Assembly: GCF_037042905.1 (NCBI RefSeq)
Contig: NC_087245.1
Coordinates: 34,038,001 to 34,102,000 of the forward strand
Direction of reading: 5' to 3'
DNA length: 64,000 nucleotides
DNA from: Lytechinus pictus
Taxonomy: Eukaryota
Part shown: positions 1-9,000 of the stretch, in pieces
Numbering within the stretch: position 1 is the stretch's first letter
Layout: the number at the start of each line of letters is the position of its first letter
Program-made: the position numbers and the translations under genes
Notes under the pieces: generated by a model
Database searches by the model: none
What the model was told of the DNA's origin: nothing
Seen by the model: the letters and a program-made list of their open reading frames with translations, nothing else

Positions 1-252
1 AGATAAAGAAAGGAAATTAACTTTCCGACGTTGTAACACATAGGAGGAAAGTGGAATTTCTTTTCGGTATCCAACGCAAGGTGTTCCTTTTGTGTTTCTT
101 ACGTAACTGCGTATTTCGAGTTTTCTCGTTGCGCTAACAAGCATATCTTTTCCATTCTCGGCTCAGCATTATTAGCTCGCGCACGTTTGGAAACCAGCTC
201 CAGATTTTCTCTACGAGCCCTGCTACCGTATTTTTTCCGTCAAGATAGCGGC

Positions 253-1038
253 ATGGACGTGGACGAGACCACGCCCGGCCCAGCCACGTCTCACAACATT
301 TTACAAGCCATCCAGGCTCTTCAACGAAAGGTGGACTCTGCCTCCCGGAAATCTGCCAAGCCCGAAAGCTCCCCCTCCTTCAAGAGTGAGGGAAACAAGC
401 AGCAATACGACCACGCCCAGAAAATTTTTCAGTGCATTGACGACGCTCTACATTCGCTGCAGGATATCGATATCGAGGCCGCAAAGGAGCGTCTACTCGA
501 GGCATCCGCCCTCCTTACTCAGAGGCAGAAACTGATTCGCCTGGCAGACCGCTCCCCTTTGGGCTGGGCCACAGTCAAAGAGTATATCGCAGACGACCTC
601 GCGGAGAATTCCGATGACGAAAAACGTCTCAGAAAGGTAATATGTTTTTAATTCCAGAATATTTTATTTTTAACAAAATATATCAAATTTTTCATACGAA
701 TTTTAGCAATACTTGACTGCGTTTTATACCACTGTGCATTTCTTCATGCATTGTTAATTTTTTCATATGCGATTTATTTTCAGGCGGAGAAGGCTGCAGC
801 CACCAAAAGGGCCGAAACAGCCAAAAAGTCGAAGATTCAGCCCCCCTTCCGGGCCCCCCGCTCTTCTGTACCTCCTCGCATTATGCCTGGGACTTTTCGT
901 CGCTTCAACCCCTACCGTTCTGAAACCCGCATCTGCTTCCAGTGTGGCATCTCCGGTCACGTCCGCCCCAACTGCCCCGCTCTGCGAGCCGCTAGAAGTG
1001 CCGTCAACCAGCAACAGCCATCCAAGGCCCCCTTCTAG
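253..1038 (+). CDS. gag: Gag-like protein, spliced join(253..636,784..1038), 212 aa
   Basis: Exon 1 ends ...LAENSDDEKRLRK at AAG|GTAAT (637); AT-rich intron ends TTTATTTTCAG (783); exon 2 continues in phase 0 with AEKAAA... and holds C-x2-C-x4-H-x4-C (CFQCGISGHVRPNC). Confidence 0.85.
637..783 (+). other. 147-nt GT-AG spliceosomal intron in gag
   Basis: GTAATA donor, pyrimidine-rich TTTTCAG acceptor, sharp drop in GC relative to both flanks, in-frame stop at 649-651 if retained, removal restores one continuous gag frame. Confidence 0.85.
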
Positions 1039-3040
1039 TGCCCCACCCGCCTCATCTCTCGACCCGCCTTCAGGCGTGCAAGGTAAATTGAGAAAATGTT
1101 TATCATTCTGGAAAAGTGAATTAAAAGCTTCCAAGTTTGTTTGCGATATTATCGAGTACGGTTATAAAATCCCTTTTGATAAAGTACCTCCCCCATTTTA
1201 TAGCAAGAATAACAAGTCCAGTTTGGATCACCCAGATTTTGTTGAAAGTGCCATCTCTGAATTGATACAAAACAGATGTGCAGTAGAAGTAAAGCAACGC
1301 CCTTATTGCTGTAACCCTCTAACCGTTGCCGAAGGCAAAAAATTACGCCTAGTTTTGGATTTACGTCACACAAATCAGTTCGTTGCACAATCTAAATTTA
1401 AATACGAAGATCTCACTCATATTGCGCAAGTGCTTGGTTCCGAGCAATTTTATTTCTCATTTGATTTAAAGTCCGGCTATCACCATGTCGACATATTTCC
1501 CCCCCACCAGCAATTTTTAGGGTTTTCTTGGACCCATTCTGATTCCGTAGTACGTTATTATGTATTCACTGTACTGCCTTTTGGGCTCAACAGCGCATGT
1601 TATTTGTTCACTAAATTGACAAGGCCACTAGTGTACCACTGGCGTTCACATGGTATAATTGCTTACATGTATATTGATGACGGCCTCATCATTTCACCGT
1701 CTTATGAATCCGCTTTAGCAAATTTGGCAGTAGTAAGGGAAACTATCCGGCGCAGCGGTTTCGTTCCCAATGAAGCAAAGTGTGCTTGGAACCCATCTAG
1801 TAGAATTCTTTACTTAGGATTCCTCATCGATTCACCATCACGCTCGATTTTTGTACCTCAGTCGAAACTAATAAACTTAGTTCAGAGCACTGACGAGCTT
1901 GTGTCATTTTCTAAGGCTGCTGCTCCTGTCCCAGTGAGAAAATTGGCCTCATTCGCCGGACACGTCATTTCAATGAATCTCGCTCTCGGTCCGGTGGCGA
2001 GATTGATGACGCGCGCAACTTATCGCGCAATCGAATCTCGGTCTTCATGGTCCGATTTGATTTTTATTTCCGAATCTGTGCTCAATGAACTGGCTTTTTG
2101 GTCTGCCAACATTTTTTCGCTTAATGGATTTGCATTTTCATATCGCCTTGTACCGACCATGCAAATATTTTCTGACGCCAGCGATCTTGGTTTTGGTGCT
2201 CATGTCCAAGATCATTCACACCTGCGCGTCCACAGTTTGTGGTCACCTTCTGAGAAACTTCAGAGTTCCACTTGGCGCGAATTGACCGCTGTTTATCGCT
2301 CACTCAAAGCATTTTCCAGCCATTGCTTTAACCAAAAAATCAAGTGGTTCTCTGATAATTCCAACGTGCCTCGAATCATTAACCATGGTAGTGTTAAGTC
2401 CGATCTTCATCGTATCGCGCTTGATATTTTCTCTTACTGTCAGTTGCACGATATTGTTATTTCACCGGAATGGTTACCCAGGAGAGAAAATATTTTAGCA
2501 GACAAGATCAGTAAATATCGCGATTATGACGACTGGTCTATCGACGATCATTCTTTCTCACAAGTAGACAACTTGTGGGGGCCACATACAGTCGATAGGT
2601 TTGCCTCCCCCCACAATGCCAAACTTCCCAATTTTAACGCAAGATTTTTTTGCCGGGGCGTTTCCGCCGTGGACGCATTTTGTCAAAATTGGGAATTTGA
2701 AAACAATTACCTCTGCCCGCCAGTATCGTTCATTATTCAAGTAATAAAGCGCATGGCTGCTTGTAGCGCTGTCGGCACGCTGATAGTTCCCCGTTGGCCT
2801 ACCTCCCATTTCTGGCCTTTCATTTGCCCCGACGGCATCCATTTTGATGCGCACATTCACGATTGGAGGATATTAAATGCTTCATTTACTCCCTCCTCCT
2901 TGCACAAAGACAAAGATGTGTTTTGCGAGCAACCGTCATTTTTTACCCTAGCATTACGATACGATTTTAAGCGCTCGCCTAGAACTTCAAACACCGGTTT
3001 TTGTTCTGCTGACTTGGGTTATTGCCCAAATTGTATTTGA
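767..3040 (+). CDS. pol: Pol: reverse transcriptase + RNase H + DNA N6-adenine methyltransferase-like domain (757 aa)
   Basis: RT motifs LRLVLDLR, FDLKSGYHH, VLPFGL, YIDD, YLGF; RNase H FSDAS, WRELTA, FSDN, NILADKIS; MT-like VDRFAS...NAKLPNFN...VDAFCQNW...NYLCPP; uninterrupted. Confidence 0.93.
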   Translation: MRFIFRRRRLQPPKGPKQPKSRRFSPPSGPPALLYLLALCLGLFVASTPTVLKPASASSVASPVTSAPTAPLCEPLEVPSTSNSHPRPPSSAPPASSLDPPSGVQGKLRKCLSFWKSELKASKFVCDIIEYGYKIPFDKVPPPFYSKNNKSSLDHPDFVESAISELIQNRCAVEVKQRPYCCNPLTVAEGKKLRLVLDLRHTNQFVAQSKFKYEDLTHIAQVLGSEQFYFSFDLKSGYHHVDIFPPHQQFLGFSWTHSDSVVRYYVFTVLPFGLNSACYLFTKLTRPLVYHWRSHGIIAYMYIDDGLIISPSYESALANLAVVRETIRRSGFVPNEAKCAWNPSSRILYLGFLIDSPSRSIFVPQSKLINLVQSTDELVSFSKAAAPVPVRKLASFAGHVISMNLALGPVARLMTRATYRAIESRSSWSDLIFISESVLNELAFWSANIFSLNGFAFSYRLVPTMQIFSDASDLGFGAHVQDHSHLRVHSLWSPSEKLQSSTWRELTAVYRSLKAFSSHCFNQKIKWFSDNSNVPRIINHGSVKSDLHRIALDIFSYCQLHDIVISPEWLPRRENILADKISKYRDYDDWSIDDHSFSQVDNLWGPHTVDRFASPHNAKLPNFNARFFCRGVSAVDAFCQNWEFENNYLCPPVSFIIQVIKRMAACSAVGTLIVPRWPTSHFWPFICPDGIHFDAHIHDWRILNASFTPSSLHKDKDVFCEQPSFFTLALRYDFKRSPRTSNTGFCSADLGYCPNCI

Positions 3041-3098
3041 AGCAAACGAGTCCTTATCATGATCAAGTACTCATATTACGATATTAGCTTTTTGCATT

Positions 3099-3293
3099 AT
3101 ACAGGCCGATTTGTGCGCCCTTCGTTCCTTTTGTACGATACAGGCCGATTTGCGGGCCAATAATATTATTTTGTTCTATCGAGGCTGATTTGCGTACCTA
3201 TCATTATCTCTATTTATTCTATCCAGGCCAATTTGCGTGCCTAGTCACCCCCCCCCCCCCCCGTTTTGTGATATACAGGCAGATTTGCATGCC
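3099..3293 (+). repeat. Array of five 21-bp motifs (consensus ATACAGGCCGATTTGCGTGCC) separated by dissimilar 18-31 bp spacers
   Basis: Units start at 3099, 3138, 3178, 3221, 3273. Confidence 0.85.
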
Positions 3294-3400
3294 TAGGTGA
3301 TGTGCAGCCCTTGCTTGCATTGTAATCACACCTTGCTTAGGTCAATTTAAGTTCCTGGCAACTTTTTACCCTGTTATGCCTTCTTTTGCGTTTCTCGATA

Positions 3401-3662
3401 GCTAATAATCATTGCCCAGCTCTGACCAAACATGTTCAATCTTTTGTCATTGTTGTTATTTTTCAGTATTTGTCACCTGAGGTAGATAAAGAAAGGAAAT
3501 TAACTTTCCGACGTTGTAACACATAGGAGGAAAGTGGAATTTCTTTTCGGTATCCAACGCAAGGTGTTCCTTTTGTGTTTCTTACGTAACTGCGTATTTC
3601 GAGTTTTCTCGTTGCGCTAACAAGCATATCTTTTCCATTCTCGGCTCAGCATTATTAGCTCG
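3401..3662 (+). repeat. Internal B-A split direct repeat of the YR element
   Basis: 3401-3533 recurs at the right end (5265-5401, differing in one T-run length); 3484-3662 recurs at 1-179. Confidence 0.95.
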
Positions 3663-4123
3663 ACTTCCCACCCCCCCCCCCTTTTTTTGTTCTTACGGCT
3701 TTTCCCTCACCCCCCCCCCCCCCCGCCCCTGGTCAAACTTGCATTACTTAGTATTCAGGAGCAAGGAGCAAGGGAGTGCGCCCTCGCTCGGTACCCTGGG
3801 ACGCAACCACGTTTCCTCCATGAACTAATATGGGGGTTTTTCGTGGCCTCCGAGTACTAGTGTCTCGTACACTAGTCAGGTACTGGGCGCCTTGCATCCT
3901 CCTTATTCGTTTCCTGTCGCATTGTTATTCTTTTGATTAAATCTAGGTCTTTTGGATACCTACTTTTGAAAAAGTACGTATTAAGCAGCTTTTGGTTCTA
4001 CTCATTACTTTGTTTCTTGAAATTTCTCACTCTGCTTACTGTACAGTATGTATGTCAGTCTTTCGACTGATTTCTTTTTATTAATTTTGTCTAATTTTCT
4101 TGCTCTCATGAGCTAACTTTCAG

Positions 4124-5115
4124 AAACATGGTCCGCCAAGCAAGACTCCATCTCCGATCCGCATCTACGCAGCCTAGCCGCTGATGTTCTTCCATCCCTA
4201 CTCATGTCTGCCAAAGCTTCATCTACCACATCAAAATACAAATCCCGTTGGGACAAATGGGTCCAGTGGGCGAGCTCCAAATCTCTACCCACATTTCCAG
4301 TCCAAGCGTACCACCTCTGTCTATACCTTTCCCATCTGTCTTCCGTTAGCGGGGCCAAGACTCTAGCAGATTCCCTCGTCGCGTCAGTGAAATGGGCGCA
4401 CAGTCTCGCAGGCCTTCCTTCACCCACAGATGACCCTATGGTAAAAACAGCAGTGCAGGGGTATAACCGGACTCACTCTTCCCCTGTTTGTCGTAAGGAG
4501 CCTGTTACACCAGAAATCCTGTCCCATCTTCGCGCATCACACGGTCAGCTCAATGCATCTTTAGCTGATCTACGCATTTTGTTTATATGCTTCATTTCTT
4601 ATGCTGGATTCCTACGCTTCGACGACCTTAGCAGGATAAGAAGGAAGGACTGCACTCTTCATCATGACAGGCTAGTCCTACACTTACCCTCTTCTAAAAC
4701 CGATCAATTCCGCCAAGGCAGAGATGTTACCATTGCTAGGACATCCAACCCGACCTGTCCCGTCATTATAGCCGAGCGATATTTCGCAGCTTTAGGCGAT
4801 CCTCCTCATTCTCACCTACCAGTGATTCGCAGGCTTGCTCGTTCCAAACGCGGTCTAGTCGCCACTTCTCACGGCCTAAGTTACACCAGAACTCGCGAGA
4901 TTGTCCTGGAGGCGTTGAAGCCCCTTGTTCCCGACGTCTCTAAGTTCGGTTTGCACAGTCTCCGGTCGGGTGGAGCTTCATCCGCTAGTAACAATCGAGT
5001 TTCTCCCTTTCTGATTTCACAACATGGTCGTTGGAAGTCAGACAAAGCCAGGGACACATACATAAAATCGGACGCAACGTCAAATCTTCTTCCTTCACAA
5101 TCCCTCGGGATTTAA
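4124..5115 (+). CDS. Tyrosine recombinase (first in-frame Met 4204; frame open from 4117, probable splice acceptor at 4123)
   Basis: Catalytic set R (FLRFDDL), K (SKTDQ), HxxR (HSLRSGG), H (HGRW), Y (RDTYIK); N-terminal core-binding region STTSKYKSRWDKW. Confidence 0.93.
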
Positions 5116-5240
5116 GCTTCAAATCCCAATCCTTTATCATTGTTGTCGAGTTAATTTTCTTGGCTGTGTTTTTGCTTATGCATACTTTGCAATGTTCATA
5201 TCATTCTGAACAAATATGAGTCTATTGAATAAACAGCGAG

Positions 5241-5401
5241 CTAATAATCATTGCCCAGCTCTGACTAATAATCATTGCCCAGCTCTGACCAAACATGTTC
5301 AATCTTTTGTCATTGTTGTTATTTTTTTTTTCAGTATTTGTCACCTGAGGTAGATAAAGAAAGGAAATTAACTTTCCGACGTTGTAACACATAGGAGGAA
5401 A
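5241..5401 (+). repeat. Right-terminal B repeat with a 24-bp tandem duplication at its start
   Basis: CTAATAATCATTGCCCAGCTCTGA at 5241-5264 and 5265-5288; identity to the internal repeat ends at ...ATAGGAGGAAA (5401). Confidence 0.92.
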
Positions 5402-6073: not shown

Positions 6074-9000
6074 TATGGCTCATCGTCCTCATTAAGTGTA
6101 CCTCGTGCTTTCCAGGTATCATAAACAGTTTGACGACTGCCATCAGGATCAGGTATCTAGACACAATTAAATATAAGAACGGCCCAAGTCCGTCTCTTGG
6201 CTAAATCGAGTTTAATTCGGGAAATTGTTGCTTAATACCCTTTAAATGCAAAAGAGCTATTCTGGACATCACTAAAACTTCTCTTAGACCAAGAGCATTA
6301 GTTTTGACTTGATGTCTGGTAACAAGCTGATTTTTTTTCAACTACAGGAATATGTCGAGGATAACATTCTAAAAGTCCTTATATGACCATATAGTGGATT
6401 TACCTCCTTTTTGGAATAATACTTTTTGGATTTAGCTCCTTTTGGAGATAAAACTCGAATTTGCCAAAAAAAATTGCCAACCTTCTCCCAAATATTTTAA
6501 AATGCGATATGGTGCATTAAGATTCNNNNNNNNNNNNNNNNNNNNNNNNNNNNNNNNNNNNNNNNNNNNNNNNNNNNNNNNNNNNNNNNNNNNNNNNNNN
6601 NNNNNNNNNNNNNNNNNNNNNNNNNNNNNNNNNNNNNNNNNNNNNNNNNNNNNNNNNNNNNNNNNNNNNNNNNNNNNNNCATGCTCTTCTTGTGATTTTT
6701 TAATACAAACTCGAAGCGTTTCCTGAAAAAAAGATGTTATACCACTTTAGATGCTTCTCGTATCAGACGGGCAAGATTGGGCGTAGCAACAATGTCAGGT
6801 ACCCAGGTCCCTATGATCAGAAGAATGTGAGAATGAGGGTGGGAAAGAATATGGTAAGATCATAATTAGAAGATATTCCTCTAGATAAATATTTCTACGC
6901 ATCCCACGAAAATTGATCATCCAATATTATTATTAATATTCAGATACCCCCACAAAGCTAAACATAAATCAATAAAGCAAAAAAAATGTTTTACTCAGTA
7001 TTTTATGTCAATCTTGTGAATCATGAGCATGGCGACTGAATATTGTCATTTTTTTTAAAGAAATTTGTGTAAAGATGCGCTAGCGTATAGTGCATGCGCA
7101 TTTGAATTTTGTAGGCGGGGCGAAATATTTGTTTCATCCAATATTTTCCATATTGCATGGTTTTCATAGGCATGCACGTTAAAAATCAGTTTTAATATTT
7201 TGTCTCTTTGAAACATCCTCGCAAGACGTCAAAAAATATCTGCGCCTCTAAAACCCTACATCTGAATAATAATATACAATAATCTAAGACTGGGAGCATA
7301 TCGAGGGCAATTGAATAATACCCTACTATGAATGTCGCCAGTGTACATATATCACTCTTAAAATAGATCAGTCAAAAATGACTAGTTAATCGAGTCAGCT
7401 GAGTGCAACTGCTATTCTAGTCATATTTCACTAATTTCTAGATGTATTTTACACAAAAAAAGGTTTTTTGACTAGAATATACGTCAGAAATGTGACTAGA
7501 CATATCAGTTACACCCAGTGGATGCACTGATCTAGTCAATTTGACTGATTTGTTTTAATACATCTAGAAGGTTGAAATTAAAACCACTCCTCTTTAACCA
7601 ACCAATGGTTGTTTTGCATATTATGGCTATCATATAAATATATATTATTTCGAATGTCTGTCGCTTATAATGACTTCAGTGCGTTGACTTCATTAACAAC
7701 TAGTACCTCCTGAATGTATACTACATTGTATCATGGAGCCTTTAGAATAAAAATAAATGCATTACTTCTCAATCACATAATACATCATTGCAATCAGTCT
7801 TTAACAACTCACCATACAAAGATACATCCACGTTAATGTAAGCAACAACTCGTATACCAAGTGTCTTGGTAAACTCCTGAAAAGATGACAATATAAAAAC
7901 ATAGAGCCACGGGGCTGTTATTTATATGTATATAATTGTATATATATATATATATAGTTGAGGCCAGAAGATTACATACACCCAGGAAATTCAAACAAAA
8001 GTTGACAATTGCCAAACAACATAAAATGTACTGTATCTTATGAAATATTTGTGCTATTATGACGAATTTGATACCAAACAAATGAGTAGGTCATGCCTCT
8101 TCATCACTTTGCTTTGTCATCAGGAGCTGAAAAATATTTAGGTGTCATTTTTTCCCCAAGAATCTTCATATTTTAGACAAATTAAAAATAAAAACCTGAC
8201 AAAAACGTTTCATATTTCGTATTGGTTGAATTATACAATTCCACCTCAACTCATCGTCTATCTCTCAGTCAATCATCCTTTATTAATTTATTCAAATTCA
8301 TTTATGGATTGTAGTTAACTCAAATGCTATATTTTTTAGACTATATACGTAGCTTTTGCATAGTGATGGTCCGTTTGCTTCCAGAAATACTATTTTCTAA
8401 GATCATGATGGTGATCATACCTCAACCCATTCATGAGATCCAATCAATCCTTGTTCCTCAGCACCCCAGCTACAAAACATGATACTACGACGAGGCTTCC
8501 ATCCTACCAAACATTCACATGAATAAAAATGAATAATTTGAATAATGTCACATCATTATGAAGTTTCACGTCATATAACACTGCGGAGTGCGAGTGAATT
8601 TACTGTTCAATTTCATACTTTTCCTTCCTTTTTTTCTTATTTTCGTTTTTCTTTATCATTTCTCCATTCATTCCTATTAATTTTGGAAAATAAATTTTCC
8701 CCTTTTCTCACAATGTGTATTTTTCTTTCGTTCCCCCTCTTCTCTTTTTTTCCCTATGTTTCCCACCAGCCGATGGAGGCGTGTGCTCCCTGTGACCCCC
8801 CCCCTCCTGTAGTTATGCCATTCATCATTATTATCATAAAACAAGAGTTTAAAAGTGAATACGCATTCAAGTAATCTCACCGTTGTTGACGAGGACGCCA
8901 ACAGCTCTACTAAGTTCTAGCATGCAAGCGGTACCGCTAGACGGATCTAGGGCACCGAACGCCCATGCATCACGATGGTTACCAACCAACACGTAACGAT

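Follow-up and report, generated by a model that had tools for sequence, protein, structure and literature searches.

Organization of the element

The window, i.e. the whole stretch of 64,000 nucleotides that was analyzed, holds at positions 51–5401 a complete, young, PAT-like tyrosine-recombinase (YR) retrotransposon. The source species of the NCBI protein that is identical to its spliced Gag is the sea urchin Lytechinus pictus. The features are listed below; the basis for each is given in parentheses.

1–50, plus strand: end of a B repeat (from the partial upstream copy adjoining the element)
51–179, plus strand: repeat A1, left end of the element (copies start at 51; identical to 3534–3662)
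253–1038, plus strand: gag, split by intron 1 (stop codon at 1036–1038)
253–636, plus strand: gag exon 1, 128 codons (ORF reading)
614–616, plus strand: ATG in the +1 frame, in the acidic gag motif; candidate Pol start
637–783, plus strand: intron 1, spliceosomal, 147 nt, phase 0 in gag (joint and exact losses)
767–769, plus strand: intronic pol-frame ATG of the original prediction (sequence)
784–1082, plus strand: exon 2, the 3' part of gag with the zinc knuckle, overlapped by the +1 pol leader
785–3040, plus strand: pol frame (profile matches)
797–799, plus strand: alternative CAG of the original prediction (joint in none of five contig runs)
1083–4112, plus strand: intron 2, 3030 nt, GT..AG (joint in four of five contig runs)
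about 1391–1822, plus strand: RT (RVT_1, E 7e-18)
about 2159–2431, plus strand: RNase H (RT_RNaseH, E 8e-4, below cutoff)
about 2522–2758, plus strand: methyltransferase-like region (Pfam Dam, E 0.0027, below cutoff; phrog_111, E 2.8e-4)
3402–3662, plus strand: internal repeats B1 (3402–3533) and A2 (3534–3662) (repeat comparison)
4117–5115, plus strand: YR frame, first Met at 4204 (Cre, E 1e-6; phrog_1 integrase, E 6e-4; no Pfam match)
5265–5401, plus strand: repeat B2, right end of the element (copies end there)

RT and RNase H, a tyrosine recombinase instead of an integrase, and a Gag-like first ORF, for which 76 homologues were found, place the element in the order DIRS. The zinc knuckle of Gag, located in exon 2, matched Pfam zf-CCHC with an E of 0.0017, under the curated cutoff. 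The methyltransferase domain follows RNase H; its matches were weak but concordant (Pfam Dam, phrog_111 and, on several homologues of the element's proteins, PF05869). On the basis of this domain and of the split direct repeats (A1..B1A2..B2), the element is probably a PAT-like member of the order. Assignment to Ngaro was rejected because of the methyltransferase match, and a DIRS1-like assignment did not suit an element whose ends are direct repeats; among the 25 longest of 52 inverted pairs, none lay inside 51–5401. The YR is located between A2 and B2 in the window element (3402–5401) and before B1 in the five other elements of the genome with readable repeats (L125–L128 and L137). No target-site duplication was found at the element ends across the aligned copies. 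The left flanks mostly end in GAT or GAA and the right flanks mostly start with G, loosely like the B-A junction.

A partial copy (A, a deleted YR with its 3' part, and B; L014, 7120–8050) abuts the window element upstream, head to tail. Host-gene exons were located at 8415–30147 of the window on the minus strand, and the element may be antisense to this gene, which presumably resembles glutamate carboxypeptidase II/NAALADase; its position relative to the gene would be inside it or past its end.

Intron 1 and its splicing

Intron 1 begins and ends with GTAATATG..TTTTCAG, i.e. GT..AG with a pyrimidine tract, and its GC content is 24%, compared to 55% and 62% in the flanking exons. It includes stop codons at 638–640 (+1 frame) and 649–651 (gag frame) and ATGs at 642, 746 and 767. 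The original prediction had described the removal of 637–783 as joining KRLRK to AEKAAA and adding the zinc knuckle, the stop of unspliced gag at 651, and a pol-frame ATG at 767 inside the intron with the next one 300 codons on; all three were confirmed, the next pol-frame ATG in the genomic sequence being at 1667.

The 636^784 joint that the prediction called for was present in all five contig runs, which derive from two studies, and a contig retaining intron 1 was found in three of the five. These runs are probably RNA. They were taken as such for two reasons: none of the 18 genomic loci retrieved contains a second GT..AG joint that the runs show (1082^4113, below), and pol assembles into a single haplotype of 2.2–2.5 kb despite many diverged genomic copies; flanking DNA also appears in the runs, so DNA content is possible. 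In its ends, its pyrimidine tract and its exact removal in these putative transcripts, intron 1 conforms to the U2 type. Position 831 in exon 2 is A in four of the five runs; both intron-less genomic copies have G. NCBI gene models likewise splice intron 1, reading KRLRK-AEK on contigs with only intron-bearing copies, and one such model (P0199) carries the L017 allele. In runs X2 and X4 intron 1 had no coverage; this does not prove full splicing, since contigs drop variants and X4 carries alleles of the intron-less copy L023. The raw-read runs X9–X11 (about 6% of each) gave almost no gag coverage, and most of the reads placed fitted partly, at poly-C tracts.

A second acceptor, the CAG at 797–799, had been proposed to join exon 1 directly to the pol frame, which would give a Gag-Pol fusion. 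On paper the frame is correct, and all 11 copies have the CAG, although copies 98–100% alike make this conservation say little. Counted from the branch region, its AG is the fourth, and the corresponding joint (636^800) was seen in none of the five contig runs, from which rare forms are dropped. We regard Pol synthesis by this route as very improbable.

Genomic copies and loss of intron 1

Introns are expected to vanish from elements that are copied through RNA; Goodwin and Poulter, writing in 2004, reportedly may mention introns in fungal YR elements. A search of the genome yielded at least 11 copies with gag at 98–100% identity and differing flanks. Nine of the 11 have kept intron 1, which is thus not a private insertion; the other two (L023 and L024, both full-length) lack exactly 637–783, so the search for intron-less copies was successful. 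The two exact deletions, together with the joint in every contig run, mean that intron 1 is real, beyond chance.

The window copy differs from L024 by no substitutions and from L023 by 10. Five alleles unite the window copy with L024, and none unites L023 and L024 against the window copy. A single shared loss was rejected (AU p=0.001 for a tree forcing L023 and L024 together), and two separate losses appear to be the simplest reading. Two independent exact losses imply that spliced RNA was copied at least twice. In the comparison of losses and motifs, locus L169 gave no motif match.

Some loci hold only parts of the element. Copies consisting of A, spacer, YR and B only (L026, 6179–8047; L027, 1846–3786) are those expected from A1 x A2 recombination, and solo A-B or B repeats occur at L028–L031.

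Putative intron 1 in related families

ORF calls ending in KRLRK-VI.. or KRIKK-VR.. at the same place were found in five other families (P0124, P0139/P0204, the P0141 group, P0142 and P0252), and in a sixth a pol call (P0213) reads out of an intron-like stretch. These related families are 50–78% identical over the exon-1 core. In five of the six, other calls continue through the junction uninterrupted, on contigs of 16–121 kb (P0200; P0207; P0256/P0128/P0136/P0208; P0131/P0251; P0135/P0248/P0250). At the level of protein calls, therefore, the same intron site is indicated across six other families and intron-less copies in five of them; in the close relative L092, the absence of the intron was read in DNA. 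Intron 1 seems to have been inherited and often lost.

These results divide the proposal that the element copies unspliced RNA selectively. In its favor, the intron has mostly been kept through copying, and a second family (L128, below) has likewise kept a gag intron of its own in all aligned copies, but strict selectivity is contradicted by the copying of spliced RNA in this family and by the intron-less copies indicated in the five others. It may be that intron 1 has no regulatory role and persists through the capture of mostly unspliced RNA or through a few old masters, a reading that concerns persistence only and is compatible with any Pol start. The frames of the intron-less copies are uninterrupted, L092 does without the intron, and a decayed family (below), in which coding does not require it, keeps its own intron in all 16 copies. 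However, the site is shared by families of 50–78% identity despite frequent and effectively irreversible loss, under which a neutral intron should have been purged, and we find the reading doubtful.

The start of Pol

Removal of intron 1 brings the ATG at 614 into frame with pol; in L024, which lacks the intron naturally, this ATG opens a frame of 759 codons through RT. The claims that no early pol start exists outside the intron, and that spliced RNA is left without one, were thereby not upheld. With intron 1 retained, the same ATG heads an 8-codon uORF. All 11 copies carry this ATG. Among the 16 loci examined, an in-frame ATG at the acidic motif was found in six of the six elements whose +1 pol frame is unbroken from the motif; the fused gag-pol elements L125 and L126 have it as well, and there the frame soon closes. 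The presence of ATG 614 by itself is therefore weak evidence, being also likely from the D/E-rich composition. The open +1 overlap was likewise rejected as proof of translation, as it is not unusual (P 0.23–0.34).

The sequence upstream is more telling. The first AUG to follow that of gag is ATG 614, and none of the three frames has an ATG between 253 and 614; for the absence of ATG over 120 codons, P is 0.002, 0.02 or 0.08 depending on the null. In the aligned upstream core, Met accounts for 3 of 2187 residues in 21 close relatives versus 83 of 4214 in 34 distant ones; upstream Met is present in two of the 21 (the other 19 have none) versus 29 of the 34. The p of 6e-12 for this contrast is overstated, as the sequences are related and were chosen by identity to a Met-free query. 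L092 has one ATG in the matching region, and other elements with a +1 overlap (among the 16 loci) have 3–10 ATGs up to the acidic motif. The depletion is thus limited to the close clade. It fits leaky scanning and is not expected under frameshifting. Against leaky scanning, the context is strong at the gag ATG (G at -3 and +4) and weak at ATG 614. In the pol calls P0207, P0259 and P0011, which cross the junction, the start is an ATG located in this region of exon 1. Start sites taken from the ORF caller were judged unreliable for the relatives; the caller also writes GTG starts as M.

Frameshifting is the usual route to Pol in retroelements. A Gag-Pol fusion could be made by a +1 shift within the overlap (536–1038) of spliced RNA; long +1 overlaps are common among the relatives, and other families of the genome fuse gag and pol in one frame. 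Besides the upstream AUG and Met depletion, which frameshifting does not predict, no shift site was identified in a non-systematic look, and this route is considered unlikely.

The start codon originally proposed, ATG 767 on unspliced RNA, could be reached by, e.g., reinitiation after the 614 uORF, with spliced RNA making mainly Gag. This ATG is in frame and kept in eight of the nine intron-bearing copies (ACG in the ninth). An intronic M in the pol frame, 10 codons inside the intron, occurs in one related family (P0213, P0215 and P0222), its codon being equivocally ATG or GTG. Such a start would also explain why intron-less copies founded no lineages. Contig depth over retained intron 1 and over pol, respectively, was 12.9 and 15.9 in X1, 7.2 and 6.1 in X5, and 10 and 6.3 in X6; depths this similar would fit most pol-bearing RNA being unspliced, but abundance is poorly gauged from contig depth, and introns 1 and 2 cannot be phased from contigs. 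On the other side, ATG 767 is the fifth AUG and in poor context, such an ATG arises in 25% of shuffled introns, and spliced RNA has an in-frame ATG of its own. The +1 frame of the L128 family becomes open only past its gag intron. The pol calls beside other intron-bearing gags (P0001, P0006 and P0237) also start downstream of the intron, which argues weakly in the same direction. Initiation at ATG 767 is, in our estimation, quite unlikely.

Intron 2 and expression of the YR

The 1082^4113 joint was present in four of the five contig runs (probably RNA) and in none of the 18 genomic loci. Removal of intron 2 takes out all of pol (RT, RNase H and methyltransferase) and the internal B1-A2 repeats, and leaves full Gag. 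The internal region of DIRS-1 is described as essential in the available text of PMC7192593, and by analogy RNA lacking intron 2 likely cannot be copied. The prediction that splicing sets the Gag:Pol ratio is supported insofar as a Gag-favoring splice probably exists, but the intron with RNA support in this role is 1083–4112, not intron 1. Intron 2, whose joint was seen, would be the better candidate.

Two other families of the genome likewise have a donor shortly after the stop codon of gag, in phase 1 of the +1 frame, and its predicted acceptor would link the +1 leader in frame with pol; in one of these families, both predicted sites are present in six of seven loci. Splicing of donor 1082 to the CAG at 4121–4123, which would fuse the pol leader to the YR, was seen in none of the five contig runs. 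The acceptor observed (4112) leaves a stop at 4114–4116 ahead of the YR frame, and the leader ends at 4175–4177. Several out-of-frame ATGs lie between 4113 and the YR Met at 4204. Run X5 has an unspliced contig of 3744–5238, a hint of a separate transcript from A2. Raw reads on the YR were few and one-sided.

Other families of the genome

The gag intron of a second family (L128; 1844–2019) differs in site and phase, and its splicing is predicted only; another predicted intron of this family (2444–2601) joins the +1 leader to pol. All 17 aligned copies keep the gag intron, and 16 of these copies are decayed; L141–L143 were left out of the alignment because of insertions. In a decayed relative of L128 (L144–L159; about 30 copies), the ends of the gag intron are kept and the second acceptor AG is lost in 16 of 16 copies examined. 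A third family (L129, 2658–3015; also L161–L165) has a predicted 358-nt intron, in phase, between the +1 overlap and RT. In L125, L126 and L127, gag and pol are fused in one frame of about 910 codons, and an A-GTGA motif that may be a donor recurs just after the zinc knuckle. L131–L134 derive from the L126 family by deletions in gag and RT, and this shortened form has multiplied in its turn.

Discussion

The reading that we favor, and hold to be probable on balance, is that the gag intron is inherited, that its removal gives full Gag together with an RT frame likely opened at ATG 614, and that three classes of RNA result. RNA lacking only intron 1 would make both Gag and Pol, the latter probably by ribosomes that skip the gag start (leaky scanning). 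It would still be copyable and so give rise to the occasional intron-less copy; the two intron-less copies show that such copying took place, and translation of this class is inferred. RNA lacking both introns would make Gag without Pol and, without the internal repeats, would likely be uncopyable; it likely raises the Gag:Pol ratio. In unspliced RNA, both frames stop just inside intron 1, and it would be poorly translated. It is likely the main template for new copies, as suggested by the intron kept in nine of 11.

A more tentative proposal, possible rather than probable, is that intron 1 acts as a switch between messenger and genome. Its retention would close Gag and Pol within five codons, and spliced RNA would be translated, Gag from the first AUG and Pol from the second by leaky scanning. 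Only the untranslated, intron-retaining RNA would found lasting lineages, and spliced RNA would lead only to intron-less copies that are dead ends.

According to the available portions of PMC7192593 and PMC9210276, PAT-like elements have gag, RT/RNase H with a methyltransferase-like domain, a YR, split direct repeats and overlapping frames. All of these are shared by the window element, which differs in its two spliceosomal introns and in the location of the YR between A2 and B2. The same portions give the Ngaro repeats as A1-[ORFs]-B1-A2-B2 and call PAT-like repeats similar. The split direct repeats, three genes and solo repeats described for Ngaro in the accessible text of PMC8547959 also occur here; Ngaro is presented as having no methyltransferase domain in what is available of PMC9210276 and PMC3783388, whereas the window element has a weak match.

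In the Ty1/Copia elements EVD (Arabidopsis) and BARE1 (barley), splicing yields a Gag-only subgenomic RNA, and BARE keeps separate RNA pools for translation and copying, as far as the text available from PMC5580714 and PMC3735527 goes. Splicing of intron 2 would work in the same manner as this Gag-only RNA. Unspliced EVD/BARE1 RNA encodes everything, but that of the window element encodes no full Gag, because intron 1 interrupts the frame of Gag and likely that of Pol. Penelope-like elements also retain introns through retrotransposition, with a different enzyme set; the introns described in the accessible part of PMC8557442 are in the 5' UTR, whereas in the window element an intron interrupts gag and has been precisely deleted from some copies. 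No description of introns in gag of DIRS-order elements was found in the available text of the literature searched (including PMC5718144, PMC6681497, PMC12477816 and PMC13465315).

The expression of overlapping genes in DIRS-order elements has been little studied, and the start codon in exon 1 leads to the specific prediction that Pol can be made without being fused to Gag. A single animal shows the intron, the product of its splicing, its precise loss and its retention in families that have diverged. With sister copies that have the intron and others that lack it in the same genome, the question of why an intron persists in an element copied through RNA can be put to the test. If true, the switch would explain how one intron has been kept across deep divergence in a clade of PAT-like elements despite repeated loss.
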